Assembly (NCBI GenBank): GCA_964343575.1
Contig: CAYFJV010000001.1
Coordinates: 91,402 to 155,401 of the forward strand
DNA length: 64,000 nucleotides
DNA from: an uncultured Methanosarcinales archaeon
GTDB taxonomy: Archaea; Nanobdellota; Nanobdellia; Woesearchaeales; GW2011-AR9
Direction of reading: 5' to 3'
In this document: in pieces, positions 1,544 through 56,978 of the stretch
Position numbering within the stretch: position 1 is the stretch's first letter
How the letters are laid out: the number at the start of each line of letters is the position of its first letter
The notes under the pieces: model-generated
What the model saw: only the letters and a program-made list of their open reading frames with translations
Database searches by the model: none
Told to the model about the DNA's origin: nothing
Program-made: the position numbers and the translations under genes

Positions 1544-4500
1544 ATGAAAAAGAGTAATGAGAAAAAGATGTGGGCTCTCGCTGGTCTTTGGGTAATGTGT
1601 TTAGTCTTGACTCTTCCTTTCTATTCTGCTCATGCTCTTGCTACCACCGTCACCATTAGTCAAAATCATGGACTTGATGCTGTTCCAGATTACATTGATG
1701 CAGGCGGTGATACTTGGACTGTAGAGGCGACTGTAAGTAATTATGATGGTGAAGGGAGCCTCTCTGCGAGCCAGGTTCTTTTAGATGTGAGTGGAAGCGA
1801 GCTTCCTTTTGATTCTTGTTCTGGGGATACCTTGAGCACACGCTGTACTTTTGAAAGTGATTTGAGTGATGGGATTCTTGAAGGAGAATATCCTTTTACT
1901 GTTTCTGTTTATGATCCTGCTTTGGTGAGTGTTGATGCCCAGGTTGGAGGAGTTGTATATGCAGATGGTTCTGTGCCAAGTGTTTCTTTGACTTATCTTG
2001 AGCAAATTGGAAGTGAAGTTCGCCTAGACTTTACAGCATCTGAGCTTCCGCTTGATGCCTGTTCTGGTTTTGAAAGTTTGCGTATCATTGATGCTGATAC
2101 TGATGAGATTTTGGAAACGATCACTTTTGATGAGCCAGGAGATTGTGAGTACTTTTATGAGATTGACAGTCCTGGGATGGGGGTTTTACAGGTAGAACTT
2201 GAAGGAGAAGGACTTCGTCGTTTAGAAGTTGAAGCAACCGATTTTTTAGGACATAGTGACATTAGCAGTTCTCGATCTTTTGAAAGTGATTTTGTTGCTC
2301 CAAGTATTGTTTTTGGGAGTATGGAATTAGTTGAGTTTGGAGATTATATAGGGGATTTTAGTGCGCCAAGTGATGTTGTGGTTAATGTTACTGAGTGTGA
2401 AGAACTCGTTGAAGTTGCTGCAACTTCAGAGCAGATTGATTTTGCAAGTCAGCCAGGAAACTGTGTGTTGGAAGATAGTTTGTCTTGTACTTGGACTTGT
2501 GAGTGGAATTCTCTGACTGTCTCCCCTGATGGAAGTAGTGTAAGTGCAGAGTTTGTTGCAATTGATGGGAAAGAAAATGTTGGCACTGCGATTTTGACTC
2601 AGGGATTCTCAGTTGATAGTGCTGCCCCTCAAGTTACTTCTTTTGGGACAGAGAATACTTTTCAAGGAGCGAGTTATGTTGCAGCAGGAGAAGAAAACTT
2701 AATTGTTCTAGAGTTGACTGATACTGGGGCTGGAATTGCTTTAGATGGCAGCGGTGTTGCTGCTAACCTTCTTGCAGTGGGAGGGGGTGATTGGCAAGTT
2801 CCAGATTCTTGTGTTGAAGGCGATGCAGGAAAGTTTACTTGTGAATGGTTGGTCTCAACTCGTTCAAGTTCTTCTACGACTTCAGATACTATTAGCTTGC
2901 GCCAACTTGATGATGTGGTTGGCAATATGGGGGACCTTGAGTCTGCTGAAGTTTTGATTGATGGTATTGCTCCAATTGTTCGTTCCATAGACTTCTCTGC
3001 CTTTTCAGTACTTGGTGAGAAAGAGTTTTTCCAAAGTAATGATGACGTGCTTGTTACACTTGAAGTTGAAGAAGCAGCTGGTTTAGAAATTTTTGTTGAT
3101 GCAAGAGAATTGGTTATGGATGCTGAGACTAAATATCGTTATGGGGAGTATGTTGATACTGAGTATATTGCTGATGAGCGTGATGGCTTTGCTCACTTTA
3201 GTGAGGCAGATTGTTCTAGAGAAGCGGGTGATGGTAACTGGCTTTGTGAGTTGAGAGTGGATTCTATCAAAAGTGGTTATGATCCTGCAGCGGAGTTTAG
3301 TGTGGAAGTCTTTGATACTGCGGGGAATTTGGCAAGTTGCGCCTCAAGCAGTTTGGAGAGTGATGCTACAACTGTTGCTGGGCAGAACTGTGAGTATAGT
3401 ATGGAAATTTTTGCTGTTGATGAAGAAACTCAACCCGATTTTTGGGAAGTAAGTAGTTTGAGTGATGGAGATTCTTTTGTAAACTTGGATATCTCTCAGT
3501 TAACTTCTCCTCGGGTAAATTATGATATCCGTTTAAGTAGTGATATTGCTGCAGAGGCAGCTTTGATTGAAGTAGGAGAATGTGTATCAAATGAAACTGG
3601 CGCACCAGTGGTTGGGAGAAGTATTCTCTTTGGTGGTGCGAATGCTGGAGCTAACCCCTCTTTGAATATGATCCTTGAGTATGATCCTTTCGATCCGGCA
3701 AGTGTTTTTGATGTAGGGACTTTGGAAGGTGGAGAGGAGTTCTCTGGTGAGGTCTTTGAGTATACCTGTCAAATGGATGTTTACTCCATTGTTGGTGATA
3801 CTGCAATGAGTTTTGCAGAGAAACAAGAAGTAGTGCTTCCAGTGCTTTTTGCTTATTCTGAGCTTGGCGCTCTTGATGAGAACATTGATGATTTAATTTA
3901 TCAAGAAATTTCAAAGGGCTCTTTTAGAACCTTTAAAGTAATTAATGATATCGCAAAAGTACTTCGCTGGGGAGAATTGTTGCTTGTTGCAATTAATGTC
4001 TTTAACTTTTTGTTCCAGACCATCGCCGGAATAAATGCTGCAGTTGAGCCTTTGCAGAACCTGCCAACTACGAAGCCGGCAGCTACCGGAGTTTGTTTTG
4101 GAGGAGAGGGGGCAAAAAGTGGAGCTAGCACAGTATTGCCTCAAATAACTGGATTTTTACAAGTATTTTATTGCCACCCTGGAGATACAGAGTTTGGAAG
4201 TGGAAGTATTGGTGGGGTAATGAATGGTTGGCAGCAGTGGCAGAAAACTGTGCTTGAACTTTGGTCGACGCTTAAAGGAGAGTGGGTCTATGATCTGGCC
4301 TTTGGAAATAAGGGGCCTACGGGAGAGAAAGCAGACCCAGGTTTCTTAGACGATCCTTCTTTTGGTAGCGATGAGCAAAGTAAACAATTTTGGTATAACC
4401 AGCTAAGTTCTCGTGGAACTGCAGCTAGTTTGTATGATAACATCTATGTTGGAGCAATCGGTCTTTGTATTCCTTCGGTAATGTATAACATACAAAAATT

Positions 4501-5008
4501 ATATCAGGCCCATTGTACCAAACTTGCTTGTTTAAAGAATGATGTGCCGGCTGGTCAGGCGACTGTGCAGTCTTGTTTTGAGGTACAAGAATATCTTGTT
4601 TGTAAGTATGTCTTGGGAGAAGTTGTAGCTCAAATCATGCCGCTTACTCAGCTTGATCGTTTGTTAGGAGATTTACTGAAAAGCATTATTTTTGATCCTG
4701 TTGGAACTATCATGTCTATCATTTCGATAACTTGTTCAACTATCTGTGCTACTTCTAACACTGGAGTAAATGTTTGTACTGCCATTACTTGGCTTTTGGA
4801 TGCAGTAAGTATGGCGGGTTCAATCGCAAATGTTATTAAGGGGATTCCAACTATCCAATACGATATTTGTAAGGAAGCAGGAGTTGAAACTGTATTGAAA
4901 AATTATGAACAGTATGAAGCAGAGCAGGTTGCAGCTGGTGAAAGTTCAAGTGTGACTACGCAAGATATTGCTGCAGAAGGCAGTGGCGTTGAGGGGGCGA
5001 GTGCATGA
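1544..5008 (+). CDS. giant secreted protein: signal peptide, acidic Ig-like repeat region, hydrophobic Cys/Gly-rich C-terminal domain
   Basis: 1154 aa with N-terminal signal peptide KKMWALAGLWVMCLVLTLPFYSAHALA. About 780 acidic aa carry recurring Cys-pair modules and x-D-x-x-G-N strands (FVAIDGKENVG, LDDVVGNMG, VFDTAGNLA). The last ~360 aa are non-acidic and contain several hydrophobic helices and many Cys. Confidence 0.75.
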   Translation: MKKSNEKKMWALAGLWVMCLVLTLPFYSAHALATTVTISQNHGLDAVPDYIDAGGDTWTVEATVSNYDGEGSLSASQVLLDVSGSELPFDSCSGDTLSTRCTFESDLSDGILEGEYPFTVSVYDPALVSVDAQVGGVVYADGSVPSVSLTYLEQIGSEVRLDFTASELPLDACSGFESLRIIDADTDEILETITFDEPGDCEYFYEIDSPGMGVLQVELEGEGLRRLEVEATDFLGHSDISSSRSFESDFVAPSIVFGSMELVEFGDYIGDFSAPSDVVVNVTECEELVEVAATSEQIDFASQPGNCVLEDSLSCTWTCEWNSLTVSPDGSSVSAEFVAIDGKENVGTAILTQGFSVDSAAPQVTSFGTENTFQGASYVAAGEENLIVLELTDTGAGIALDGSGVAANLLAVGGGDWQVPDSCVEGDAGKFTCEWLVSTRSSSSTTSDTISLRQLDDVVGNMGDLESAEVLIDGIAPIVRSIDFSAFSVLGEKEFFQSNDDVLVTLEVEEAAGLEIFVDARELVMDAETKYRYGEYVDTEYIADERDGFAHFSEADCSREAGDGNWLCELRVDSIKSGYDPAAEFSVEVFDTAGNLASCASSSLESDATTVAGQNCEYSMEIFAVDEETQPDFWEVSSLSDGDSFVNLDISQLTSPRVNYDIRLSSDIAAEAALIEVGECVSNETGAPVVGRSILFGGANAGANPSLNMILEYDPFDPASVFDVGTLEGGEEFSGEVFEYTCQMDVYSIVGDTAMSFAEKQEVVLPVLFAYSELGALDENIDDLIYQEISKGSFRTFKVINDIAKVLRWGELLLVAINVFNFLFQTIAGINAAVEPLQNLPTTKPAATGVCFGGEGAKSGASTVLPQITGFLQVFYCHPGDTEFGSGSIGGVMNGWQQWQKTVLELWSTLKGEWVYDLAFGNKGPTGEKADPGFLDDPSFGSDEQSKQFWYNQLSSRGTAASLYDNIYVGAIGLCIPSVMYNIQKLYQAHCTKLACLKNDVPAGQATVQSCFEVQEYLVCKYVLGEVVAQIMPLTQLDRLLGDLLKSIIFDPVGTIMSIISITCSTICATSNTGVNVCTAITWLLDAVSMAGSIANVIKGIPTIQYDICKEAGVETVLKNYEQYEAEQVAAGESSSVTTQDIAAEGSGVEGASA

Positions 5009-6966
5009 GATCAAAAACCTTCTTTTCACTTTTCTTTTGTATGTTGCTAGTCTTAGTTAGTGTTTCTTTTGTTTTTGCCGATTTGGAAGTGATTAGTGAT
5101 CCTGATGTTGTTGTTGGTGATGGTTATTTGTCTGGTTTTGTTTCCATTAGTGGAGAAGCTGCAGATGGTTCAACACAGACGATGTTCATCCCAACAGATG
5201 TATACAATGATTTGGAAGAGGATGGTTTCTTTGCTAATGCTGATCTTTTGTATGATACTGATGCTGGCGCTCTGAGTTATGGTGATCAGACTTCCTTTTT
5301 TATTGATGATCTTACTCCTGGCCATGAGTCAATAAGGGTTGATTACTGGACAAGATCAGGGCCTGATGATTGGGAACAACACACTATCATTGATAACGAT
5401 GAAGGTGTTGATTTGTTCTACGATGAGGGAACTGGCGTTCTTAGTGTAGTCTCTGAGGGAGAAGTTGTAGCAAGCGGGGATATCTCTGGAGATGCTGATG
5501 CAACTTTAAGCTCCCTTGCAACGGGGACTGATAGCGTTTTGTTTGCTGGAGCTGAAGGAGAAGGAGATACTCGAGTTGATTTTAGTGGAGACGGTATTGT
5601 TATTGAACAAGGAACTTTTAGCGGAGGAAAGCTAGAAGAGGGTACAAAAACAACTGAAACTACGGAGGATCTTCTGATTGGTTCTCGAACTGTGACTACC
5701 ACCATTACTGTTGAAGGTGGAGAAGAGGTTAGAGATTCAGGAGAAGTGTGGGATGCTGATGGAGAACTGGAATACACATGGGCAACAGAGCAGGACGGCG
5801 ATCGAGTGTATATGAGTGCTGCGGGACAAGTAGTTGGCTACTCAAGTCATGATGTTGGTGATACTGATTATGGACTTGTCTTTATTTCTCACGATGGAAA
5901 AACACAGGGGAATGGCTTGACTGATGAAGGTTGGGAGAGGTTGGATGAAGGAAAACCAATTCGTTCTGAAGATATAAACTTGAATAGAGAAGATTGTGTG
6001 AGTGATACTTGTATTGCTGTTCAAGAGCAACAACAGTCAGAAATTTATGCTGGTGTAGAGCATGGTCTTGGGTACCTGGGATCAGGACAGTTTTTTTCAA
6101 ACCTACTTTTTGGGGACCTTTATATTGAACAAGGTGTTGCTTCTTGGGATCGTTTCTGGGCAGGTTCTGTTGTTGGAGAAGAGTATTGGGAATCTTTAGT
6201 TTGCAGTTGGCAATTTCCTGACGTGCAAGATCAAGGTGTTGCTTTTATTGAAACTCCGGCAGGAACAATTCAATTCGTTGGGCATATCGAAGCAGAAGTT
6301 TCTTCTGAAGGGCCTATGCTTTGTTCTTACAATGAAGAAGAGTTAGCTTACACTTCTTGTCCGGAAGGACTTCGTTGCGTTGATGAAGTTTGTGTAGATA
6401 GTGAAGAGGAAGCGGTTAATGCAGAGATGTATAAAATTACTTGGGGCGTGCAAGCTCCGATGGATGAAGCTTTTACTCCTTATGTAAGTGAAGATGGAGT
6501 TGCTATTACTTACAATATTTTAATTGGTGGTCCTGATTTGCAGAGTAAGAATTTGGCAGAAGCAGGTGTTTGTGGTGATAACGATCCAAGTTGTGTTCGT
6601 TTGTACAGTTACCAAGGAGATAGCGGTTTTCCTTTACGTTTAGAAAATGGTGAAGCAGATGGAGCAACTGTTGTTGAGTGGTCTACAAACACAGATTATG
6701 CAACAGTATGTATTGCTTGGGGAAAACCACCTGTTACTATTAATTATTGGGTTGCAGGAAATCAGCTTCCTAAGGGTAAATATGAAGGAATGTCTGGTGG
6801 AACTATTGTAGATCCTGTTTGTAACGAAATTAAGTTAAGTACGCGAGGAACTGTTGCTTCTGCTGCAGAAGCAGGAAAAAGCAAGTCGAATCAAGAAGCT
6901 GGAAGTAGAGATGCTGGATCTTCCTCAGTTGCAACTGAGCAAGGAGTTACTTTGAATGACTTTTAG
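5005..6966 (+). CDS. acidic secreted protein, translationally coupled to the upstream gene
   Basis: 653 aa. The start ATG overlaps the upstream stop (ATGA at 5005-5008). Signal peptide MRSKTFFSLFFCMLLVLVSVSFVFA. Strongly acidic N-terminal half and a Cys-containing C-terminal half. No known motif recognised. Confidence 0.7.
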   Translation: MRSKTFFSLFFCMLLVLVSVSFVFADLEVISDPDVVVGDGYLSGFVSISGEAADGSTQTMFIPTDVYNDLEEDGFFANADLLYDTDAGALSYGDQTSFFIDDLTPGHESIRVDYWTRSGPDDWEQHTIIDNDEGVDLFYDEGTGVLSVVSEGEVVASGDISGDADATLSSLATGTDSVLFAGAEGEGDTRVDFSGDGIVIEQGTFSGGKLEEGTKTTETTEDLLIGSRTVTTTITVEGGEEVRDSGEVWDADGELEYTWATEQDGDRVYMSAAGQVVGYSSHDVGDTDYGLVFISHDGKTQGNGLTDEGWERLDEGKPIRSEDINLNREDCVSDTCIAVQEQQQSEIYAGVEHGLGYLGSGQFFSNLLFGDLYIEQGVASWDRFWAGSVVGEEYWESLVCSWQFPDVQDQGVAFIETPAGTIQFVGHIEAEVSSEGPMLCSYNEEELAYTSCPEGLRCVDEVCVDSEEEAVNAEMYKITWGVQAPMDEAFTPYVSEDGVAITYNILIGGPDLQSKNLAEAGVCGDNDPSCVRLYSYQGDSGFPLRLENGEADGATVVEWSTNTDYATVCIAWGKPPVTINYWVAGNQLPKGKYEGMSGGTIVDPVCNEIKLSTRGTVASAAEAGKSKSNQEAGSRDAGSSSVATEQGVTLNDF

Positions 6967-11909: not shown

Positions 11910-14900
11910 ATGAAAAAGGTGGTGGATGGACGTTTTACAGTCGGTACTAGAAAGAAATTTCTCTACGTTACTTTCTTCTTGCTCACTTTGTTTTCTTTAA
12001 TTCTTGCTGGTTGTACAGATCCTGACCCAAGTACCATCAATACCTGTAATAGCGCAAGTAGTACAAGAATTATCGGAACAGATTGGCTCTGTATAAAAGA
12101 TGTTCTGGCAGATCAAGGATCTGGAAAAGTTTGTTTAGTTAAACCAAATGAGAATGAGCTTTCTACTTCTGATTTTACTAAACTGAAGGATGATACAATT
12201 AATCGTTTGATTTCTGATCTTGATATAAGTGGTTCTGGTCCAGAAGGAGATTTCAGAGAAGGAATCGATGATGGACTCACCTACCGCAGTGGTGATTGTT
12301 ATGATTTAGATAGCAACCATGTCTTCGAATCGTTTGAAACACCAGCCTCACAATTTGATTTTCAACAAGCTATCGAAGACACCTTAGATCAACCTTATGT
12401 CCCACTCATGTTCTACTGTGATATGTCACACGAATACAGTCAAAAAGGACTTATCGTGGTACAAGAAGCAAATGATGAAGAAGAAGAACTTGATATTTAT
12501 GTTTGTCACGGTGGTAAATGGAAAGATGCAGATGATCTAATGGATGATGATCTTGATAAAGATGGTGATGGCGCTTCTTTATGGTGGGATTGTAATGATG
12601 CAGATCCGACCAGACATGCAGATATGAGTAAGTATGGCATTGGAGAACCTGCAGCAGAGGTTTGTGGAGATCGTGTTGATAACCAATGTTTGCAGCCTTA
12701 TGAGTATAATGATATCACTTTTGATTGGGATGGTCAATGGAGAGATAGTTGGGAAGATGCTTGTGATAACAACGCATTTGCTTGTGAAAACAATTGCCTT
12801 TGGGAAGGAAACAAGTGTGACTTTTTGGGTGCTTACAACCAGGATTTTGACTATTATGAAGGCGAAGGAACTGCAGGGTATTGTTGTGGAGCAGGGGCAG
12901 TTGATGATTTAGGAAGAACAGTTGGAGACGATGAAATTTGTCTTTCAACAAATGAAGATCTTGTAAGTGTGAACCTTGATGGCTTGGTTACCAGAGATAG
13001 GGTTCTTGATGCAGAACTTGATGATCCTGAAGCAAATCCTGATAACTGTCCAAGTGGAGCAGATTGGTGTTGGGTAAACGCTGGAGAGACAGGTGGTTCA
13101 ATTGAAGATGTGCAGTTCCAAGTGCTTACTGTCAAAGAACTTGGAGAAGATCCTTACGATGTTGTCTCAAACAGTGAAGAGTGGTTCTTTTGCGATGCTA
13201 ACGCCCTTGCTGCTGAAGAAGAAGTTTTGGGTGCCCCAGAGGCTTTGGCACTTCGTGATACTGCTAATCGTTTTTACTGTTCGCAACAAGGAACAAACTA
13301 TGTGTGGGCAGAGTGTATTGAACCAGGACTTGCTTTTAACGATGAGGTCTTGCCTGGAGTTGAGAGTGTTAAATATCGACAGGCAGGAGATGGATTGTAT
13401 GCTCTTGCTGCAGAGGCAGTTGGTGGAGAAGTAGTACTTACTGGCCCAGCTTATGATGCTTATTATGATAAAAGTTACAGCTTTTATGAAGATACTTTTG
13501 ATTTTACCGGATTTGATTATTTAGAATTCTTTGTTACTTTTGATCAGATAGATGCACTTCCTGTTAGTGTTTTGCTTGAAGTCTTTAGTGCTGCAGAAGA
13601 TGCGCAAGAAGAAGTACAGTATTATGATGGCAATGTACTTGGATATGCAGTGAATGCTCCTTTGCTTGAAGTTGGAAGAACAGTGCACATCAAAGTTCCA
13701 ATTGAGGGAGATTGGAAGGATGTTACTCGGGTAAACATTTTTCCAGGACAATCTACTAATGAGATTACTGTGACTAATGTGTATCTCACCAGTGATGATG
13801 CACCACTTCTTTGCTCGGGTGATCAAGACGAATTAGAAAGTTCTTGGATTACCGATATGGATTATTCTAGTGCAAGTAGTGATATTCGAGGAGAAGAAAT
13901 TTGTACAACTCATTTTGGCCCGGATGCTTGGCTTGGTCGATCTGACTTTACTTACGCTGAAGTAGAAAGCTCTAGTGCAAGTTGTTGTGGGAATCAAGCT
14001 GGAGAATATTATGCTGGGAGTACAGCAGATGGTGGTTTGAGCGCTTGTTGGAATGGAGATGTGGTGCAAGAAAATGAAACTTTCATGAACGTTGCTTATG
14101 AAGTGAGCTACTATCTTGAAGATAAAGAATTTGATGCAAGTTCTGAGAAGCTCTTTACTATGGGTGCTGTTGATGATTTACATTTGTTGGTTCCTGGAAG
14201 AAAATTGAGTCTTTCGGAGACTCACGATATGCTTGTAGGTTTGGATGGAATAGAAGATGGAGAAGTTCCTGAGGGACTTGTCGCCTTTGCAAGTGCAGAT
14301 GATCCCGACTTTAGTGTGGTGTATGATGCTATTGAAGAAGGAGATCTTGTTGAAGGAGATATTATTATTTTCAATGAAGCGCTAGTTGGTGGTGGTTGGT
14401 CAGAATTTATCGAGACTTATGTCTCTCTTCCTTGGCCAATTGCCTATGACGCTTACGAAATCACTGCTTTAGAAGAGCCCCTTAATGGATTTTACACTGT
14501 AAGTTATGAAGAGTCTCCCCAAATTGTGGAAAGTTTTGATTTGGACCTTCGTGAACTTTATGATATTGGGGTTGATCTAGTACAGTTTGATTTACCTTAC
14601 AGCAGCGAGGGACTTACTCCTTGGATTGATGTCTACTTCTTTGTTCCTGAGATCCAAAAGCGTTACGGAGATCTCTTTGTAGCAAGTCCTGGTGCTGAAT
14701 TACCTACCATTCTTACTTTGCAGATAGTTGCTGAGACTAATGATCTTACAATCACGGAGAATCCCGATCGTCAGGAAGTTGATGGTTTTGTTTATCCTTG
14801 TACTCAAGAAGAGTGTCTTTTTGGTCTTCCTGGCTCACCAACTTATGAAATAACTAACAGTCATCCTGCTCTCTATGATCTTTATTTTGTTCCTGCTTCA

Positions 14901-17000
14901 GATCCAGATAATCCTGTTCTGATCACTGCAGCTGCACAACCTTTCACCGAGGAAGGAAATTTGCTTGTCAAAAGTTTATCTCAACAAGTAACTCTCTTGG
15001 GGGAGAGTTTCTATGGTTGTCAAGCGGCAGATTTCATTGCTACAACACAGTTTGGTGGTTTAGATGTCTTGACAGAGAATGCTCTTTCTTGTTCAGTGTA
15101 TGGAAATTCTTTCTGTGCTTACCAAGATAATGGACTTATTAATAGTTGGAGTCAAGAAGACATTAGTGCTTATGGTTATGAAGTAGATGGTTTGAGTGAT
15201 GAATTTGTCTCTAGTGATGATTTGGACCTGCACCAATGTGATCCTGCCTATGATACTTGTGATGCAGAAGATAGAAACCAATCAAGTCATGCTGTACCTG
15301 GTCGTAATTTTATTAGTAACGCCGATTTTAGTGCGCTTGATGGAGAAGATGTCTTGCACTGGGCTCACTTTGATCTCACCGGCGTGGTTTCAATCGATCG
15401 TGAAGAAGACTTTGTTATCGATGGAATCTATTCTCTTGCGGCAAGAGAAACACTTGTTTCTGAGCGTATTGTGTTGTTTGCTGAAGAAGAATACCAATTA
15501 AGTTATACTGGGGTTTGCGAAGTAAGTGCTACAGTTTATGATAAAAATGGTGCCGTATTGTTAGCTAAAATTGGTCCTGGACCGATTCCTTTTACCTCTA
15601 CCGAGATGCTTGATGCTTCTTATATGATCATTGAGTTTGATGGTGGTCAGTTGGGTTGTGAGCTCAGCGAACCTTATTTGCAATTAGTTGATCCTGTCTT
15701 TGGAGCTAACTTGTATAATTATGACTCAGAATTTCCTTTAGGGGCTGGGGCTGCTTGCTGTCCAAGTGATATGTGTTGGAATGGACAGTACTGTGTGCAA
15801 GATATGGGTTATACTACCTTTTTGAGCGAGAATGTGCATAATGATACTTATCGTTGTGTTGCAGGGGATTGGGAGTATGTTGATCCAAAATGGGATTGGA
15901 ACGGAGAGGACTTTGGTTACTGTGATGAGCAAACTCAGTGTTTTGTTACCAGTTCTCTCACTACTGGTGCAAGTGGTGATTACTTAGCAAGTGATTTTTA
16001 TGATGGGAATTATCCAACCTGTATTAATGATGGAGAGTACATCTTAGATCATTACCGTCGTGAAGGAAATTGGAGCTCACGAACCCAGTTCTTAGCTGAA
16101 GGTTTGCTTAATGTGGGAGATTCTATTGAGGACTTTGCTTTGTACTGTACTGATTACAGAACAAACCTTAACGACCATGATCTCTGGGCTAGTTATCTTT
16201 CTGGTGTTGAAACCGCTCCTGATTTTGCTGGAGTTGGCTTGGGTGATGCTTTACTTGATGTAGAACCAGAAGAGAGTAATGTTTGTTTCTCAGCGATTTA
16301 TAATCATGATGCTGGGGAGCGCTTGGTCCCGGTAGAAGATAATACTTGTATTAACAATGTTTGTGTACTTAAGTTCGGAGATAGTGAAGAATCTAAGGTT
16401 GCACTTGCGGCAAGTATGAACCTTGAAATAAGTGATCCGAATTCCTTTTTGATTCCACTTGGTTTAGGTGATTATAGTGATTTAGCAGTTGCTTGTCCTG
16501 ATGCAGTTGGCTCAGAAACTTTTGTAGAGTGTGATCCTACTTTTTGGTATGCTGAAGAGATTAACTCTTTGATTTATGCTAAAGATGGAGTTACTTTGAC
16601 AACTGGTGTTTTTGATCTGCTTGAAGATCTTTGGCAGTGGTTCATTGGACTTTTTGGTGCTGGCGAGTTTGATGCCATTGAGTTTTTAGAGGATACTAAT
16701 GATTTTAACAAATTGTATTTACTTGACGTCAATGGGGATTCTGTGAAAGTAGTTCAAGAACTTGGAGAAGGAGGCGATCCTGTGATCTTAGCTGAGTTTG
16801 AAGGACTTGATTCTCCGGTTTGTGATTATGTCTTGAATGCTGAGTATGATAAAGTGTATCGTGATCAGTGGCCAGCGTCCCCTGAGCAGCTTGTTGACTG
16901 TAGTTATAATGAAACAGAAGATGTTTATTATGTAAGTACTCAGCACGAGACAGGATATTGGTGGGAGCAATTAGTTGGTGAGCTGAGGATTTTTGGGTGA
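11910..17000 (+). CDS. giant (1696 aa) acidic Cys-rich surface protein with lipobox-type N-terminus
   Basis: A single uninterrupted 5.1-kb ORF. The N-terminal anchor FFLLTLFSLILAGCTDPDP is lipobox-like. DKDGDGASLWWDCNDADPTRHAD...CGDRVDNQC resembles the Asp/Cys putative metal-binding repeat. There are dozens of Cys and very high D/E content. Confidence 0.8.
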   Translation: MKKVVDGRFTVGTRKKFLYVTFFLLTLFSLILAGCTDPDPSTINTCNSASSTRIIGTDWLCIKDVLADQGSGKVCLVKPNENELSTSDFTKLKDDTINRLISDLDISGSGPEGDFREGIDDGLTYRSGDCYDLDSNHVFESFETPASQFDFQQAIEDTLDQPYVPLMFYCDMSHEYSQKGLIVVQEANDEEEELDIYVCHGGKWKDADDLMDDDLDKDGDGASLWWDCNDADPTRHADMSKYGIGEPAAEVCGDRVDNQCLQPYEYNDITFDWDGQWRDSWEDACDNNAFACENNCLWEGNKCDFLGAYNQDFDYYEGEGTAGYCCGAGAVDDLGRTVGDDEICLSTNEDLVSVNLDGLVTRDRVLDAELDDPEANPDNCPSGADWCWVNAGETGGSIEDVQFQVLTVKELGEDPYDVVSNSEEWFFCDANALAAEEEVLGAPEALALRDTANRFYCSQQGTNYVWAECIEPGLAFNDEVLPGVESVKYRQAGDGLYALAAEAVGGEVVLTGPAYDAYYDKSYSFYEDTFDFTGFDYLEFFVTFDQIDALPVSVLLEVFSAAEDAQEEVQYYDGNVLGYAVNAPLLEVGRTVHIKVPIEGDWKDVTRVNIFPGQSTNEITVTNVYLTSDDAPLLCSGDQDELESSWITDMDYSSASSDIRGEEICTTHFGPDAWLGRSDFTYAEVESSSASCCGNQAGEYYAGSTADGGLSACWNGDVVQENETFMNVAYEVSYYLEDKEFDASSEKLFTMGAVDDLHLLVPGRKLSLSETHDMLVGLDGIEDGEVPEGLVAFASADDPDFSVVYDAIEEGDLVEGDIIIFNEALVGGGWSEFIETYVSLPWPIAYDAYEITALEEPLNGFYTVSYEESPQIVESFDLDLRELYDIGVDLVQFDLPYSSEGLTPWIDVYFFVPEIQKRYGDLFVASPGAELPTILTLQIVAETNDLTITENPDRQEVDGFVYPCTQEECLFGLPGSPTYEITNSHPALYDLYFVPASDPDNPVLITAAAQPFTEEGNLLVKSLSQQVTLLGESFYGCQAADFIATTQFGGLDVLTENALSCSVYGNSFCAYQDNGLINSWSQEDISAYGYEVDGLSDEFVSSDDLDLHQCDPAYDTCDAEDRNQSSHAVPGRNFISNADFSALDGEDVLHWAHFDLTGVVSIDREEDFVIDGIYSLAARETLVSERIVLFAEEEYQLSYTGVCEVSATVYDKNGAVLLAKIGPGPIPFTSTEMLDASYMIIEFDGGQLGCELSEPYLQLVDPVFGANLYNYDSEFPLGAGAACCPSDMCWNGQYCVQDMGYTTFLSENVHNDTYRCVAGDWEYVDPKWDWNGEDFGYCDEQTQCFVTSSLTTGASGDYLASDFYDGNYPTCINDGEYILDHYRREGNWSSRTQFLAEGLLNVGDSIEDFALYCTDYRTNLNDHDLWASYLSGVETAPDFAGVGLGDALLDVEPEESNVCFSAIYNHDAGERLVPVEDNTCINNVCVLKFGDSEESKVALAASMNLEISDPNSFLIPLGLGDYSDLAVACPDAVGSETFVECDPTFWYAEEINSLIYAKDGVTLTTGVFDLLEDLWQWFIGLFGAGEFDAIEFLEDTNDFNKLYLLDVNGDSVKVVQELGEGGDPVILAEFEGLDSPVCDYVLNAEYDKVYRDQWPASPEQLVDCSYNETEDVYYVSTQHETGYWWEQLVGELRIFG

Positions 17001-20010: not shown

Positions 20011-20128
20011 TGCGGGGAAAGGGATTTGAACCCTTGAACCTACTAAAGGACAGGATATCATATGCCCATTCAAAAATGGGCTGTCCATCTTAAGTCCTGC
20101 GCATTTGACCAAACTTTGCTATCCCCGC
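20011..20128 (-). tRNA. tRNA-Leu(UAA): tRNA-Leu (anticodon UAA) with a 32-nt intron at the canonical 37/38 position
   Basis: Reverse complement: GCGGGGA-TA-GCA..TGC-G-CAGGA-CT-TAA-G-[ATGGACAGCCCATTTTTGAATGGGCATATGAT]-A-TCCTG, then long variable arm TCCTTTAGTAGGTTC, T arm AAGGG-TTCAAAT-CCCTT, TCCCCGC, and discriminator A. The intron is about 20057-20088 (junction ambiguous by 1 nt). No CCA is encoded. CTTTTT follows the 3' end. Confidence 0.88.
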
Positions 20129-27445: not shown

Positions 27446-27769
27446 ATGAGCGATAAGAAATTAGTTGCAGATAAAGTTAGGGAAAAGGAAGGGGAACTTA
27501 GAGATTACATTAGTGCTTTGAGGAGAGATCGTGTTTTGAGAGCTTTATTTCCTGAAGAGTATACCTATGTGTCTAACGTTTTAGGTGGGCCGACAACTCC
27601 CCCTAGTGAAGACTGGTACAATGATAAAAGATATGTTAAGAAATTACTAGTTCATTACCAAGTGTATGAAAGAGGCCTTAGTAAAGAAGTTCGTGCTGAA
27701 AAACACGATCATCATGGTTTGCACCTTCTTATTGAGCAGCTTATAGTTCTAATAAGGGAATTATTATGA
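27446..27769 (+). CDS. hypothetical protein coupled to the downstream kinase
   Basis: 107 aa. GAGGTGAT SD 8 nt upstream. The stop overlaps the kinase start (ATGA at 27766-27769). No motif recognised. Confidence 0.5.
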   Translation: MSDKKLVADKVREKEGELRDYISALRRDRVLRALFPEEYTYVSNVLGGPTTPPSEDWYNDKRYVKKLLVHYQVYERGLSKEVRAEKHDHHGLHLLIEQLIVLIRELL

Positions 27770-28482
27770 ATGATTTCTTTTCTTTTTTATTAAAAAATTA
27801 TTCTGAAGTATACTTGTTTAATCAGAGATGTTATATTGCTTTTGATGACCATGGTAAGGAGTTTTTTCTTAAGGTAGTTGATGAAAAACCTTACTCTGCT
27901 TTGAGATCTCTCTCTTACCCTTCTATTGTTGTGTGCAGGAAAATCTATCCCTTTGACGGATTTTATCTTCTTGAGTTTCCATACATCTCAGGTGAAAACC
28001 TTACTTATGATTTCCCTTTTACAAAGGATGCCCTCGCTGATTTCGTTAGGGCAGTTTTCTTTTTGATTGAGCACAATGTTGTTCACTCAGATTTGAGGCC
28101 TTCTAATCTTCTTGTTAGAGACGGTAATATCTTCATAGTAGATTTCAACTCCTCTTGCGGATCTAATCAGAGGAGAAAGGTAGGGGTTTCTTTCTATTCT
28201 CCTCCTGAGTTAAATGAAGGATTTACTCATGAATATACAGACCTGTATTCCCTTGGGCTTATTTTTTCCTATCTTTTACTTAAAGAAGAGCTGCTTACTG
28301 TTGATTATTCAGATAATCTTAAGTTTAGAAGTGGTCTGCTGGAACTACTTCAAAGAAATTTTGCTGCTGATCCTTTGATCTCTCTGATTCATACTTTTTT
28401 GCGGCTTGAGCCTTCTGATAGAAGGATCTCCTTACAAAAAGCTTTGGAAAGCATTTATACTTCAAAATTGCTTGGTTCTTAA
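27766..28482 (+). CDS. minimal eukaryotic-type (Hanks) Ser/Thr protein kinase-like protein
   Basis: 238 aa. FFLKV carries the candidate catalytic Lys. VVHSDLRPSNLLV corresponds to H-R-D-L-K-P-x-N, IVDFNSS to DFG, FYSPPE to APE, and DLYSLGLIFSYLL to D-x-W-S-x-G. No obvious Gly-rich loop. Confidence 0.65.
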   Translation: MNDFFSFLLKNYSEVYLFNQRCYIAFDDHGKEFFLKVVDEKPYSALRSLSYPSIVVCRKIYPFDGFYLLEFPYISGENLTYDFPFTKDALADFVRAVFFLIEHNVVHSDLRPSNLLVRDGNIFIVDFNSSCGSNQRRKVGVSFYSPPELNEGFTHEYTDLYSLGLIFSYLLLKEELLTVDYSDNLKFRSGLLELLQRNFAADPLISLIHTFLRLEPSDRRISLQKALESIYTSKLLGS

Positions 28483-28538: not shown

Positions 28539-29249
28539 ATGCAACTTAAAGAATTAAAGAGAGAAATTGAAGCACTTCCTAACCTTGATAAAGAGCTTCA
28601 GGGCTTTCAAGAGAATTGGGTCAAACCTTTCTTAAGTCAAAGTGGAAAGAACAAAATTACTGATAAGAATTCCCCGCTTCACGCTCTTAATGATCTGAAA
28701 CAGGGTGAACAAGAAGAAGTACATAGCATGATTCTTGATGCGCATTCGCAATTTGATGAGCTCAAGTATGGACAGTTTACTAATGTAAAAATGCAAAGCC
28801 TTGCCAAGGCGATGATTGATTTGAAGTTGCTTGAGTTTCAATATAAAAATTCTGGAGATGCTGGCAAGGACAGTAAAGAAGAAATGGTGAAAAGTCTTAC
28901 TGCTTCTTCAAAGTACAAATATTTGACTTCTAAAGTGCTTCACGATGAGTTTGGAAGTCTTCAAAAAACGATTCATGAGATTAAAGCTTTTGATAGCCAA
29001 CTTCAACGACTCGAAGAGACTTATAATGAGGTAAACCAGTATTTGTACCAAAAGTTGCCTCTTGAACATTCTGTAGGTCTTATGGATATGGGCCATAAAG
29101 ATAATTTAAAGAATTTGAAGATGGCTTCACGCCGCCGTAAGGCTTTGATTAAGAAGTTGGGTAAGAATTTCATTGCTTTACAAAACCAACTTCGTGGACG
29201 TGGCCAGAGTCCTGGTGCTGAGAAGAAGCTTGATTTGGTGCATGATTAG
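28539..29249 (+). CDS. coiled-coil protein of unknown function
   Basis: 236 aa, K/E/L/Q-rich heptad-like sequence throughout, with a basic C-terminus. No motif recognised. Confidence 0.45.
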   Translation: MQLKELKREIEALPNLDKELQGFQENWVKPFLSQSGKNKITDKNSPLHALNDLKQGEQEEVHSMILDAHSQFDELKYGQFTNVKMQSLAKAMIDLKLLEFQYKNSGDAGKDSKEEMVKSLTASSKYKYLTSKVLHDEFGSLQKTIHEIKAFDSQLQRLEETYNEVNQYLYQKLPLEHSVGLMDMGHKDNLKNLKMASRRRKALIKKLGKNFIALQNQLRGRGQSPGAEKKLDLVHD

Positions 29250-29300: not shown

Positions 29301-29310
29301 TTTATAAAAA
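29301..29310 (+). promoter_or_regulatory. TATA box (TTTATAAAAA) for the sigma-like gene
   Basis: Ends 20 nt upstream of ATG 29331, which is archaeal-type spacing for a leaderless mRNA. Confidence 0.45.
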
Positions 29311-29330: not shown

Positions 29331-30254
29331 ATGGTCAAATTATTTGAAAAATTCAACCGAGTAGAGTTGGTTGGCCCTTTGGCAGGACTTGGGATTAGCT
29401 CTAGAAAAAAAGACTTAGGGTTGGAACATGCTGCTTTTTATGATCCAACTTATCTTCTTCAGAAGGGAGTTTCAAGATATGACCATAAGAGAGAAATTGA
29501 TCAAGGCATTTTTTTGGAAGTTTATCGGGATCATGGGCGCTTTATTGAGAGGCTTGTTGGTAGGCGTTGCCTAAGAGTTTCCCCATTTGTTTCTGTTGAT
29601 GAGGAAGATGTCCTTCAATTTGTCTATTTTGGCATTATGAAGAACATTGCTCGTGGCCATTTGGATAAGCCAAAGCGTACTAGGCCCTACCTTGGCCTTG
29701 TTGTTTCTAGTTTAGTTGTTGATTACCTCAGAAAATTTGGAAGAGAGAGTTTCTCTAGGAGAGACCATCAGAATAAGAAGAAGTTAGATCAATTTACTGG
29801 TTATTTTTCAGCAAAAAATGGTAGAGAACCTTTTTTGGAGGAAAAGTTGGAGTTTGCTCAAAGAGTAATAGGTAGAAAATTCACAGAGCAAAGATTGAGG
29901 GATTTAGAAGAGAGAACCTCTCGTAGACATATTAGTTTTGATTCTAGACCTTCTGGTCAAAGTGACGGGATCTCTCTTCGTGAGAAGGTGAGTTCTCAAG
30001 ATTCAGTTGGCACTGACTCACTTGCAGAAAGATCTTCTTTAAGAAAATACCTTGATCGAACTATTTCTACCTTACATCCAAGGGATCAATATGTTCTTGC
30101 TGCATATTTTTTTGAGGGTCTCTCCCAAAGAGAAATTGGGGAAAGAATTGGTGTTACTGAATCGAGAGCGAATCAGCTATTGAAAAGAGCCAGAATAAGA
30201 ATGAGAGCTAGGTTAGAAGATCAAGGAATTGAAAAAGTCGATGATTTATTCTAA
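29331..30254 (+). CDS. sigma-70 family protein (regions 2 and 4 recognisable; bacterial-type)
   Basis: 307 aa. EDVLQFVYFGIMKNI...YLGLVVSSLVVDYLRK is region-2-like. LHPRDQYVLAAYFFEGLSQREIGERIGVTESRANQLLKRARIRMRARL is a near-textbook region-4 HTH. About 100 aa lie between them and there is a ~95-aa N-terminal extension. Confidence 0.7.
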   Translation: MVKLFEKFNRVELVGPLAGLGISSRKKDLGLEHAAFYDPTYLLQKGVSRYDHKREIDQGIFLEVYRDHGRFIERLVGRRCLRVSPFVSVDEEDVLQFVYFGIMKNIARGHLDKPKRTRPYLGLVVSSLVVDYLRKFGRESFSRRDHQNKKKLDQFTGYFSAKNGREPFLEEKLEFAQRVIGRKFTEQRLRDLEERTSRRHISFDSRPSGQSDGISLREKVSSQDSVGTDSLAERSSLRKYLDRTISTLHPRDQYVLAAYFFEGLSQREIGERIGVTESRANQLLKRARIRMRARLEDQGIEKVDDLF

Positions 30255-30904
30255 CTTTTAATTCTTTTATCTTTGTATTCGCAATACTTCGTAACTGTAC
30301 ATTGATCACACTTTGGTCGGACTGGGGCGCAGATTCTCTGGCCATGATCGACAATTAACTTGTTAATATCAATCCAACGCTCTTTTGGGATTATTCTCAT
30401 GAGCTCTTGCTCACTCTCTTCTGGACTTTGTGTATCAATCCAATGGAGTCTTGTTGTATTGCAAATGCGATGTACATGAATGTCAACAGCAATAGCTGGT
30501 TTTTTGAAAGCATAAGTAAGTACACAATTTGCAGTTTTTCTCCCAACGCCGGGAAGATTTGTCAGTTGTTCTAGGGTGTTTGGAACTTTGCCTGCGAATT
30601 CTTCTATGATCATTTGAGCAAGTTTTTGCACGTTCCTTGCTTTGACTCTAAAGAAGCCAATGCCATAAAACCATTTTTCCAGTTCTGGTATTGGAATTTG
30701 GGCTACATCTTCTGGATTAGGATATTTTTTGAAGAACTCCTTGACAATAGGAATAGTAGTTGCATCTTTGGTTCTGGCGCTGAGCAGTGTTGCAACTGTG
30801 ATTTGAAAAGGAGTGAAATAGCTGAGCTCCTCGAGCATAGTTTGTCCATGCGTTTTTTGGAGGATGTTGAGTACTTTGAGTATTTCTCCTTTACTTTTTG
30901 GCAT
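30251..30904 (-). CDS. nth: endonuclease III (HhH-GPD DNA glycosylase/AP lyase with [4Fe-4S] cluster)
   Basis: LTNLPGVGRKTANCVL (HhH), AIAVDIHVHR, and the C-terminal Cys cluster CAPVRPKCDQCTVTKYC. Its stop codon overlaps the stop codon of the convergent sigma-like gene. Confidence 0.9.
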   Translation of the reverse strand: MPKSKGEILKVLNILQKTHGQTMLEELSYFTPFQITVATLLSARTKDATTIPIVKEFFKKYPNPEDVAQIPIPELEKWFYGIGFFRVKARNVQKLAQMIIEEFAGKVPNTLEQLTNLPGVGRKTANCVLTYAFKKPAIAVDIHVHRICNTTRLHWIDTQSPEESEQELMRIIPKERWIDINKLIVDHGQRICAPVRPKCDQCTVTKYCEYKDKRIKS

Positions 30905-30960
30905 ATTTTTTCTAGGATATATACATAATTTTTAAAAATATCTTTGTTTATTGAACTGTT

Positions 30961-31173
30961 ATGGAAGCAGAGATTATGAGTAATGAGGAGATTGTGAAAG
31001 AACTTAATAAGATTAAGAAGGAACTTAGTTATATTAAGGCCCACATGGTTGATGTTGATACTGTTCTCACGGCAGATGAAGAAATGAGGCTCAACGAGTC
31101 TATTGCTGAGTATAAAGCAGGAAAAGTAATTTCTTTGGAAGAGTTGAAAGCAAATCGGGAACTGAAGAAGTAA
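30961..31173 (+). CDS. putative antitoxin partner of the RelE/ParE-like toxin
   Basis: 70-aa ORF ending 1 nt before the toxin start. Small, helical and acidic, in the position typical of an antitoxin. The assignment is by context only. Confidence 0.45.
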   Translation: MEAEIMSNEEIVKELNKIKKELSYIKAHMVDVDTVLTADEEMRLNESIAEYKAGKVISLEELKANRELKK

Positions 31174-31174
31174 A

Positions 31175-31444
31175 ATGTTGAGTTTAGTTTTTTCCTCGCA
31201 TGCTCAAAGATTCCTTAAAAAATGTGATGATGGACTCTGTGAAAGAATAATCTCTAAAATAGAGAAGTTAAAAGATGAGCCTTTTCCCTCTGATTCGAAA
31301 AGAATTAAAGGAAGAAAAGACAAACATTTTAGAGTAAGAGTTGGAAATTATAGGGTTCTTTATTCTGTTAATCGTGGCACCAAAGAATTAGTTATTGAAG
31401 ATATCGATAAGAGATCAAGAGCTTATTTGTGTTTCTTTTTTTGA
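31175..31444 (+). CDS. relE: RelE/ParE-family type II toxin
   Basis: 89 aa. KHFRVRVGNYRVLYSVNRGTKELVIEDIDKRSRAY matches the RelE core (R-x-R-x-G-x-Y-R-x-x-Y...R...Y). Confidence 0.75.
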   Translation: MLSLVFSSHAQRFLKKCDDGLCERIISKIEKLKDEPFPSDSKRIKGRKDKHFRVRVGNYRVLYSVNRGTKELVIEDIDKRSRAYLCFFF

Positions 31445-42559: not shown

Positions 42560-43162
42560 TTAGCTTTTTGGCAAGAACTCTGGATATTCTTGCAGATTTT
42601 CTACAGTATCGATATCTGTTTTTTCATCAAGCAGTGAGAAGTTTAAGTTTTCTTTTTTGATAAGTTTAATTGTTTGAGAGAGCACTTGTTCATGACTCCA
42701 ACTTTTTAGTGAGAAAATGTTTTGTGGCTTTTTGAGTGCAACAAGATAGTATCCTCCATCTTTTGCTGGGCCAATGACCACATCTACTTGCTCTAACTTT
42801 TTTAGAGCTTTGTTTATGCTTTCTTCTTTGAGTGGAAGATCTGAACCAATGAGTACTGCTTTAGCATATTCTTGTAGGCTATGGTTGAAGGCATTGTTTA
42901 TTTTTTCTCCAAGATCTTCTCCTTGCTGTACTTGTACCTGTTGTGTTTGGAGTCCTCTTTCTAAAAAATAGTCCTCCCTTCCCTTAATAAAGAAGAGAAG
43001 ATCGTAGTTTTTCTCTTTATGCTCTTCAACTAGGAAATCGATGAGCTTTTGGTAAACCTTTCTTGCTTTCTGCTCCCCAATACTAATAGCAAGTCTGGTC
43101 TTTACTTTTTCGTGTAAGGGATTTTTTGCAAAAATGATGAGCAGAGTTTTTTCTTTTTTCAT
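42560..43162 (-). CDS. DUF2064-family (TIGR04282-like) nucleotidyltransferase-fold protein
   Basis: 200 aa. LLIIFAKNPLHEKVKTRLA at the N-terminus, then IGSDLP and VIGPAKDGGYYLV. It overlaps the upstream GT2 gene by 4 nt, which is the usual pairing. Confidence 0.55.
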   Translation of the reverse strand: MKKEKTLLIIFAKNPLHEKVKTRLAISIGEQKARKVYQKLIDFLVEEHKEKNYDLLFFIKGREDYFLERGLQTQQVQVQQGEDLGEKINNAFNHSLQEYAKAVLIGSDLPLKEESINKALKKLEQVDVVIGPAKDGGYYLVALKKPQNIFSLKSWSHEQVLSQTIKLIKKENLNFSLLDEKTDIDTVENLQEYPEFLPKS

Positions 43163-51176: not shown

Positions 51177-51842
51177 ATGAGAATGAAAGATATCCCTTGG
51201 TTTAACAGACCCTGGACAAAACTGAAAAGAAATGGTCCTGCTGCACTTGATGATGCAGAATTGCTTTCTCTTATCTTTATGCGAGGTAATGAGAAAGAGA
51301 ATGTACTTGATCTTTCTAACAGGTTACTTGCTAGATATAATTTACATCACTTCTCTGGGTGTAGTAGTGGGGAACTTAAGGATCTTCTTGGAGAGGAAGT
51401 AAAAGCCTACCAAGTACAAGGTTTGGGAGAATTGTTTAAACGTTACTCAAAGCTTAAAGAGAGAGGTTTTCGTAGTTCAGTAGAAACTGCTAAAGATGTT
51501 TTTGTTTATCTTAGAGAAGAGTTGCGAGATAAGAAAAAAGAACATTTGTACGCACTGTTGCTCGATTCTAAAAATAAGATCATTAAAACAAAATTGATCT
51601 CTATTGGTTCTTTGAATCAAAGTTTTGCACATCCTCGTGAAGTCTTTGCTCCTGCAATTCGTGAGGCAGCTCAGTCAATTATCTTGGTGCATAATCATCC
51701 TAGTGGAGATCCTCGTCCGAGCAAGGATGATATTCGCATCACTAAGAAATTACAGAAGGCGGGAGTTTTGCTTGGCATTAAAGTGATTGATCATGTGATC
51801 ATTGGTGATGAAAAATATTGGAGCTGGCTTGAGAGTAAGTAG
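51177..51842 (+). CDS. radC: RadC-like JAB-domain protein (UPF0758)
   Basis: The C-terminal IILVHNHPSGDPRPSKDDIRITKKL is the JAMM/RadC signature. The N-terminal part is HhH-like. Confidence 0.85.
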   Translation: MRMKDIPWFNRPWTKLKRNGPAALDDAELLSLIFMRGNEKENVLDLSNRLLARYNLHHFSGCSSGELKDLLGEEVKAYQVQGLGELFKRYSKLKERGFRSSVETAKDVFVYLREELRDKKKEHLYALLLDSKNKIIKTKLISIGSLNQSFAHPREVFAPAIREAAQSIILVHNHPSGDPRPSKDDIRITKKLQKAGVLLGIKVIDHVIIGDEKYWSWLESK

Positions 51843-56896: not shown

Positions 56897-56978
56897 GTTG
56901 TATTTTGTTTATTCTTATTCTCGTTTCTTTGACTGTATTAACATAATCTTTATATCCTTTCTTGGGTCTTGTGTTTTT

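Follow-up and report, generated by a model that had tools for sequence, protein, structure and literature searches.

The open reading frame (ORF) at positions 29331-30254 of the 64,000-nucleotide stretch of archaeal DNA analysed here (referred to below as the window) is a real, highly diverged bacterial-type sigma-70 family gene in an archaeal chromosome. Its product is a three-domain, FliA/WhiG-like protein of 307 amino acids. Domain-by-domain profile comparisons show its sigma4 domain to be preserved as in working bacterial sigma factors, and its sigma2 domain, that of core docking and melting of the −10 element, to be apparently remodelled. Sigma factors on one side and TBP/TFB on the other form the textbook divide between bacterial and archaeal transcription initiation and, given that divide, a sigma gene kept in an archaeon is a natural experiment on a sigma factor without its polymerase. 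The explanation that we favour, tentatively, is that of a former sigma factor now kept as a DNA-binding transcription regulator, which would act through the helix-turn-helix (HTH) of sigma4.

Identification of the sigma-70 family protein

The original prediction, which was made from the DNA letters, had placed a 307-residue sigma-like product at this site, and the ORF was found exactly there, on the + strand and with an ATG start, together with the two peptides then quoted (residues 92-135, region 2-like, and residues 251-294, region 4). The whole protein passes the NCBIfam model of the sigma-70 superfamily (TIGR02937, 71.7 bits for a cutoff of 42.9). The profile searches suggested along with the prediction gave an uneven picture. 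The two Pfam models of region 4 scored above their cutoffs (Sigma70_r4, PF04545, 45.6 bits for 24.1; Sigma70_r4_2, PF08281, 41.0 bits for 25.7), but Sigma70_r2 (PF04542), with an alignment covering the domain, reached only 18.2 bits, under the gathering score of 24, and the Pfam models of region 3 gave no match. A match to PF07638 was confined to the C-terminus, with a score exactly at the cutoff. The top full-length NCBIfam model was that of FliA/WhiG (TIGR02479), whose 87.8 bits do not reach the subfamily cutoff of 189.6; SigB/SigF/SigG (TIGR02980) came as the second family, with 51 bits for a cutoff of 234. Sequence searching of the PDB returned WhiG (6pfv, E 4e-13) and FliA (9wsf, 1rp3 and 6pmi) as best matches, in alignments running from about residue 73-88 to about residue 297. 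The proposed likeness to FliA and group 3 was thus borne out, FliA/WhiG being the best family match.

An AlphaFold2 (AF2) model built on 59 relatives has a mean predicted local distance difference test (pLDDT) score of 80, and displays sigma2 (residues 58-136), sigma3 (143-197) and sigma4 (228-297) domains preceded by a disordered segment (1-50). All the top Foldseek matches of this model in the PDB are bacterial sigma factors, namely SigB (8x6g_H, E 8.6e-9), RpoS, FliA/FlgM (1rp3) and WhiG (6pfv). Two other assignments were considered and rejected. An extracytoplasmic function (ECF, group 4) sigma factor would consist of sigma2 and sigma4 alone, and the protein has three further helices, at 143-197, that form a domain like sigma3; a lone HTH regulator does not agree with the three-domain, group-3-like sigma factor predicted by the model.

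Domain organization and uneven divergence

Residues 1-57 (29331-29501, on the + strand as all the segments that follow) constitute an N-terminal extension that is predicted to be disordered, with pLDDT values <50 at residues 1-50. For these 50 residues no database match was obtained, a few alignments of the exhaustive HMMER search beginning at residues 51-54. The sigma2-like domain (residues 58-136; 29502-29738) is modelled with helices at 58-83, 91-107 and 118-136. The sigma3-like domain (143-197; 29757-29921), which is moderately diverged, consists of three helices (143-163, 169-179 and 186-197) and aligns with region 3 in the FliA/WhiG structures. A family-typical region 3.2-like linker (198-227; 29922-30011; pLDDT 62-73) leads to the fully canonical sigma4 HTH domain (228-297; 30012-30221; pLDDT 89-98). 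Sigma4 keeps L248, Y259, E277, R279 and Q282, its hydrophobic core is textbook, and the recognition helix of region 4.2 reads TESRANQLLKRA.

The divergence of each segment was measured by leave-one-out hidden Markov models (HMMs) made from the 59 relatives, the query never being included, which gives 60 sequences compared. The sigma4 domain of the query scored 83.5 bits, for 86.8 ± 14.2 in the relatives (z = -0.23); this value and the Pfam scores of region 4 sustain the description of this region as near-textbook. The region 3.2 linker scored 18.4 bits for 10.9 ± 6.6 (z = +1.1), and sigma3 24.0 bits for 45.5 ± 12.5 (z = -1.7). The sigma2 domain yielded 29.9 bits for 94.3 ± 12.8 (z = -5.0), the lowest of the 60. 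When identities are considered, the sigma2 of the query is 19.8% identical to that of its relatives, which share 38.4% among themselves (ratio 0.52); the equivalent ratios are 0.81 for sigma3 and 0.92 for sigma4. Region 2, described in the original prediction as clear, is recognisable and has its fold kept in the model, but it lies under the Pfam cutoff and is the most diverged part of the protein.

Six radical changes of sigma2, G98V, A105N, F117T, A121L, R124V and G127S, fall at positions that are 86-97% conserved among the relatives, and R126S at a position conserved in 73% of them. The column table adds F/Y109G, T119P, A128L and W140S as further replacements of family-conserved residues, while G101, Y120, D131, R134 and R143 are family-conserved residues that the query keeps. 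According to our own mapping from the known sequence of Escherichia coli sigma-70, the replaced sigma2 positions correspond to regions 2.2-2.4, which we take to hold the helix docking on the β′ clamp helices, the residues of the −10 nucleotide pocket and the contacts with −10 DNA.

Promoter and composition

The sigma gene is preceded by an archaeal TATA box, TTTATAAAAA, located at 29301-29310 (+ strand), that begins 30 nt before the ATG and ends 20 nt before it, as had been predicted. In the 68 window genes tabulated, TATA-like hexamers peak between −27 and −33 from the start codons, and the box of the sigma gene starts at −30/−28. Archaeal genes with leaderless mRNAs have their TATA box 27-33 nt ahead of the start codon; the spacing found in the sigma gene hence implies a leaderless or near-leaderless mRNA.

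The predicted host-like codon usage was also recovered, with an ordinary GC content at third codon positions (GC3 of 0.283; mean in the window 0.308 ± 0.044) and rank 32 of the 68 genes in a measure of adaptation to the window akin to the codon adaptation index. The trinucleotide signature of the gene is at the 73rd percentile among equally long segments of the window. Thus, neither GC, GC3, codon usage nor trinucleotide signature breaks at the sigma gene, and its borders are free of the compositional step by which a misassembled fragment might be recognised.

Archaeal setting and syntenic relatives

The window contains the archaeal cluster S13-S4-S11-Rpo3(D)-L18e-L13-S9 and then Rpo10(N), in addition to L15e, GatE, RtcB, a primase that fuses PriS with PriL and an intron-containing tRNA, all of them archaeal features, and the only RNA polymerase (RNAP) subunits seen in it are archaeal. 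Of the RNAP subunits D, L and N and the ribosomal proteins listed in the original prediction, D, N and the ribosomal cluster were located; RpoL was not found among the window ORFs scanned. The RtcB protein of the window is 82-76% identical to those of three third-party annotation (TPA) metagenome-assembled genomes (MAGs) auto-labelled 'Methanosarcinales', and 77%, 74% and 72% identical to those of MAGs named Candidatus Woesearchaeota archaeon. Moreover, contig L008 (33% GC), from the best of these auto-labelled MAGs, is syntenic with the window around RtcB (FNR 54%, RadC-like p221 68%, GatE 63%). From these identities and this gene order the organism is a Woesearchaeota-type DPANN archaeon. 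Contigs L008, L009 and L010 (CAYWPT010000006.1, CAZCGN010000002.1 and CAYFOH010000044.1) bear the title 'uncultured Methanosarcinales archaeon' and have GC contents of 33-37%; in all likelihood that label is wrong and the genomes are those of Woesearchaeota-type DPANN archaea.

The sigma gene is flanked upstream by p236 (28539-29249, + strand), which has its own TATA box and with which the insertion is bounded on the left, and downstream by a convergent gene for an Nth/HhH-GPD glycosylase (30251-30904, − strand), whose stop overlaps the sigma stop and which marks the right edge. The p236 gene is kept in relatives without the sigma gene, its homologues there being 47-58% identical. Contig L003, from a JGI metagenome, presents the order PPase-DUF1003-p236-Nth-DHODH-2-hydroxyacid dehydrogenase-p413-thioredoxin-NurA-ornithine decarboxylase, with proteins 46-72% identical to those of the window. 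On this contig the homologue of p236 directly overlaps the convergent Nth, and neither a sigma gene nor a remnant of one is present (best tblastn E 0.8). The sigma gene is absent after p236 also in L004, in L005/L006 (L006 being from a Tara Oceans sample) and in L007; that is, it is missing from the syntenic site in the four related lineages found (five contigs). A scan of the GTDB representative genomes gave no close relative of the sigma protein either, and no orthologue could be named.

The simplest history is the gain, in the lineage of the window, of a unit of about 1 kb composed of promoter and ORF, the alternative being repeated precise loss. Under either gain or loss, the sigma gene is accessory and stands outside the machinery conserved in the clade. 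Neither direct nor inverted repeats flank the gene, and no viral hallmarks, integrase or transposase were detected within ±10 kb by PHROG and Pfam. The earlier claim that the gene is not contamination stands, as both flanks, p236 and Nth, are syntenic with the related archaeal contig L003. The claim that it is domesticated has to be restricted: native promoter, composition and embedding agree with it, but as the gene is missing from the same site in the relatives, the term should not be taken to mean ancient or core.

Relatives in the databases and origin

In a word-indexed search of 5.8 billion clusters the sigma protein matched only itself, on a 665-kb contig. An exhaustive HMMER search of 1.84 billion representatives rendered 2,477 sigma-family matches, of which only 19 had E values below 1e-10. 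Identity reached 25-31% in the best of the relatives aligned over the full length. The mean identity of the query to the 59 relatives is 24%, and that of each relative to the rest has a mean of 33% and a minimum of 25.5%. As far as sequence comparison goes, the protein is a long isolated branch for which no donor can be named.

The FliA/WhiG cutoff of TIGR02479 is passed by the relatives P0012, P0013, P0016, P0017 and P0019, true members among the relatives scoring 214-293 bits, and the three closest relatives (P0009-P0011) are just under it. The two closest full-length relatives, both of them sub-threshold FliA/WhiG-like proteins, lie in phage-like neighbourhoods. That of L001 (JGI Ga0665414_0000215) includes Sipho_Gp157, AntA and pentapeptide-repeat proteins, and that of L002 (Logan SRR29270169_51097) includes DnaN, WhiB, SSB and MoxR-like genes and many unknown ORFs. 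Two further near relatives, P0011 and P0018, are on contigs of insufficient length to display a neighbourhood. The phage sigma family PHROG 1740 matches the sigma protein with an E value of 9e-17, and no full-length match closer than 21-27% identity was obtained in reference phages and IMG/VR. The sigma gene, closest to the group-3 FliA/WhiG sigma factors, is best explained as horizontally acquired and lineage-specific. As a separate observation, several top-scoring matches of the HMMER search (P0006, P0007, P0008, P0014 and P0087) consist of 5-9 tandem sigma4-like HTH units (...EIGERFGVS.S.VS.L...), an unusual organization that has no relation to the context of the window gene.

Comparison with known sigma factors

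The sigma protein resembles FliA/WhiG (TIGR02479) in its sigma2-sigma3-sigma4 organization without region 1.1 and in the wording of region 4.2 (..GVTESR..Q..). It differs from them in a sigma2 lacking the near-invariant G, F and R-I-R-G, in the additional 57-residue N-terminus and in a host with an archaeal RNAP. In addition, flagellar, chemotaxis and FlgM/RsiG-type anti-sigma genes are not found within ±10 kb of the window gene. Promoters of FliA type (TAAA-N15-GCCGATAA) gave 0 matches in the window, with 0.14 expected, and sigma70-type promoter-like sites are not enriched in it (23 for 30.6 ± 4.3). SigB/SigF/SigG (TIGR02980, 8x6g) provide the second-best profile and, with 8x6g_H, the top Foldseek match. 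Unlike those systems, the window lacks a GHKL anti-sigma kinase and has instead a Hanks-type kinase, which is parted from the sigma gene by a conserved unrelated gene. The sigma factors of viruses (PHROG 1740 and those of DPANN viruses) are likewise divergent sigma-70 proteins outside bacterial chromosomes; in contrast to them, the window gene is not surrounded by viral genes, and no viral sequence is closer to it than the cellular ones. A defence-island assignment was rejected, as the sigma protein has no PADLOC match, sigma-like MzaA-type systems included.

Sigma-70 genes have already been published in DPANN archaea, and the window copy is an unusually isolated further case. Castelle et al. 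(2021, PMC8204110) described them (fam00359) as 'particularly prevalent in Woesearchaeota', excluded mis-binning as their cause, did not find anti-sigma factors and offered no definite mechanism; the same authors raised, as a speculation, bacterial hosts for some DPANN. A 2025 study reported that DPANN viruses carry two divergent rpoS-like genes, one on a prophage (PMC12647753). The window copy shares with the fam00359 genes its presence on a demonstrably archaeal Woesearchaeota-type contig and the lack of an anti-sigma gene. It differs in its isolation: with relatives of about 31% identity at most, it cannot be placed as a close member in the clades sampled so far.

A second sigma gene was found in a contig of the MAG 'Candidatus Micrarchaeota archaeon MAG003' (L051, JBFLVJ010000011.1). 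This RpoD-like sigma of 372 amino acids (4523-5641) is encoded directly after RtcB and ahead of cobW and archease. Its region 2 is canonical (YVTWWIRQA), the Pfam scores being 47 bits for r2 and 65 bits for r4, and an AT-rich, archaeal-looking TATA box, CTTTATAAAG, precedes the ATG by about 27 nt in a background of 57% GC. It is group 1/2-like, with RpoD/MzaA-type best matches, and has no pairwise similarity with the window sigma (BLASTP E 0.64), which implies independent acquisitions. Therefore, DPANN archaea took up sigma genes more than once, and from different sigma groups.

Possible role of the protein

Many bacterial-type HTH regulators act on TBP/TFB promoters in archaea, and the favoured explanation, held with reserve, would add a former sigma factor to them. 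In a cell that lacks the bacterial core polymerase, the protein would have given up its role in a promoter-melting holoenzyme; sigma4, and perhaps sigma3 also, would bind DNA in a sequence-specific manner, and in doing so the regulator would modulate TBP/TFB-dependent archaeal promoters. The disordered 57-residue N-terminal extension could serve as a regulatory or partner-binding tail. The pattern of a kept sigma4 and a remodelled sigma2 predicts DNA binding without holoenzyme formation.

Several considerations weigh against this explanation. The regulatory role is proposed from the pattern of domain conservation, and sigma factors in isolation are often poor DNA binders. Both sigma3 and the region 3.2 linker, important above all in association with RNA polymerase, are still family-typical, a condition that fits continued polymerase association or too little time for decay. 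The comparison set was itself selected for similarity to the query, a choice that could favour sequences alike in sigma4; nonetheless, they are strongly alike one another in sigma2. Finally, as an accessory orphan the gene offers no orthologues for a ratio of nonsynonymous to synonymous substitutions (dN/dS), and it could be neutral.

Neutrality is the core of an unlikely alternative, in which the gene is a functionless passenger, horizontally transferred, tolerated whether expressed or silent, and slowly decaying, with sigma2 affected first by chance. It would agree with an orphan that has no orthologue in any relative, whose sigma2 is under the Pfam threshold and which has no cognate polymerase, promoter or anti-sigma factor at its disposal, and which is accompanied by other insertions specific to the lineage (p107 with a kinase-like gene, and a ParE toxin pair). 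However, the 307 codons are uninterrupted in a genome of 38% GC, codon and oligonucleotide amelioration is complete, the TATA box is at the modal distance and the AF2 fold is confident. DPANN genomes are streamlined, the sigma stop overlaps that of its neighbour, and random decay would not spare a sigma4 as conserved as in working sigma factors. The preserved segments could also be read as signs of a partnership with the archaeal RNAP, a prospect that we consider distinctly unlikely. Sigma2 would have adapted to the homologous clamp coiled-coil of Rpo1N (A′), and the 3.2 linker and sigma4 would be kept for their contacts with RNAP and promoter DNA, turning the protein into an accessory initiation or promoter-selectivity factor on TBP/TFB. 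The best argument for it is the kept 3.2 linker, family-typical as sigma4 is, to which a sigma2 fold predicted confidently despite the sequence change and an intact gene with a consensus promoter can be added. Against it count the replaced residues of the −10 nucleotide pocket, absence from close relatives, which sets the gene apart from the basal machinery, and the fact that, to our knowledge, no archaeal RNAP uses a sigma factor. The L051 protein, for its part, suggests that sigma genes can persist in DPANN with polymerase-interaction residues intact, and the homology proposed between the HTH of sigma and TFB (PMC8131849) offers a conceptual docking model. More specifically, and improbable in our estimation, sigma2 would sit on the Rpo1N clamp coiled-coil while sigma4 reads a promoter-upstream element, as a switch layered on TBP/TFB. 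Such a retooled sigma, if true, would be of high interest as a natural hybrid of the bacterial and archaeal initiation systems, a bacterial-style promoter-selectivity switch in an archaeon.

The phage-like contexts of the two nearest full-length relatives, the PHROG 1740 match and the rpoS-like genes of DPANN viruses and prophage (PMC12647753) bring in a virus or mobile element, of which the gene would be a remnant or cargo that once redirected the transcription of the element and then stayed in the chromosome, or else would belong to a group of defence or addiction genes, as might be indicated by the adjacent insertions, which comprise a kinase with weak similarity to defence kinases and a toxin-antitoxin pair. 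It is quite improbable for a single-gene insertion with its own host-type promoter, without PADLOC match, without flanking repeats, without viral hallmark, integrase or transposase within ±10 kb, and at only 21-27% identity from viral sequences. Still less can be said for a genuine sigma factor directed to the RNAP of bacteria, for instance one delivered into, or acting on, a bacterium with which the DPANN cell lives as guest or partner. We know of no mechanism by which a DPANN sigma would act on the RNAP of a bacterial partner. The overall sigma2-3-4 architecture is kept and bacterial hosts for some DPANN were raised by Castelle et al. (PMC8204110), but degeneration is greatest in sigma2, on which core binding and DNA melting mainly depend, and neither a signal peptide nor secretion-associated genes nearby were seen, all of which makes this very improbable. 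An assembly chimera or a bacterial contaminant fragment, in favour of which speaks only the bacterial affinity of the protein family, is effectively excluded by the archaeal promoter, the unbroken composition and the two flanks syntenic with a related archaeal contig; it would require a pair of junctions no farther than 82 nt and 4 nt from the ends of the ORF.

The window sigma overturns nothing by itself. What it adds to the published DPANN sigma genes is that they can be single-gene, lineage-specific acquisitions, that such genes gain proper archaeal leaderless promoters and that, in the window copy, the DNA-binding sigma4 is preserved and the polymerase-docking, DNA-melting sigma2 appears remodelled.

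Neighbouring genes and other features of the window

The p236 protein has no Pfam or PDB match. An anti-sigma role for it was rejected, as relatives devoid of the sigma gene have p236 all the same. Upstream of p236 lies a pair formed by p107 and a Hanks-type kinase-like gene (27446-28482, + strand) that overlap by 4 nt, the kinase matching Pfam Pkinase with 55 bits. No homologue of the kinase was found in the word-indexed search, p107 is an orphan as well, and neither of them occurs in L003-L007. The kinase has HSD for HRD and DFN for DFG, and the N-terminal glycine loop region is missing in its Pfam alignment. Compared with PADLOC it shows a weak, generic similarity, limited to the kinase domain, to the defence kinases mad6, MkoA and PD-T4-6. 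The p107 protein has no Pfam or PDB match, and neither p107 nor p236 shows similarity to FlgM or RsiG. A partner-switching module of STAS protein, kinase and sigma was discarded, p107 being predicted, with low confidence (pLDDT 59), as all-helical and not STAS-like. A link between the p107-kinase pair and the sigma gene is possible.

On the other side, an antitoxin-like gene of 70 amino acids and a ParE toxin gene (30961-31444) are located between Nth and DHODH, in the interval 30905-31444, and are extra with respect to L003. The short intergenic region from which Nth and the antitoxin-like gene diverge contains a palindromic ATTTTTAAAAAT, which makes a TATA box in both directions.

Other typically bacterial families in the window are a DUF2064 ('conserved in bacteria')/CofC-like protein (42560-43162) and RadC (51177-51842); their presence fits the heavy import of bacterial genes described for DPANN. 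Large unannotated proteins are frequent in DPANN genomes, and two giant ORFs of the window, at 1544-5008 (1154 amino acids) and 11910-17000 (1696 amino acids), have no Pfam or PHROG match, nor has the ORF at 5005-6966 (653 amino acids). An intron-containing tRNA of 118 nt at 20011-20128 (− strand), missed by ARAGORN, was recognised by Rfam with 49.5 bits. The fused PriS-PriL primase is encoded by one ORF of 522 amino acids (56898-58466) that carries both the small- and the large-subunit domains of primase.

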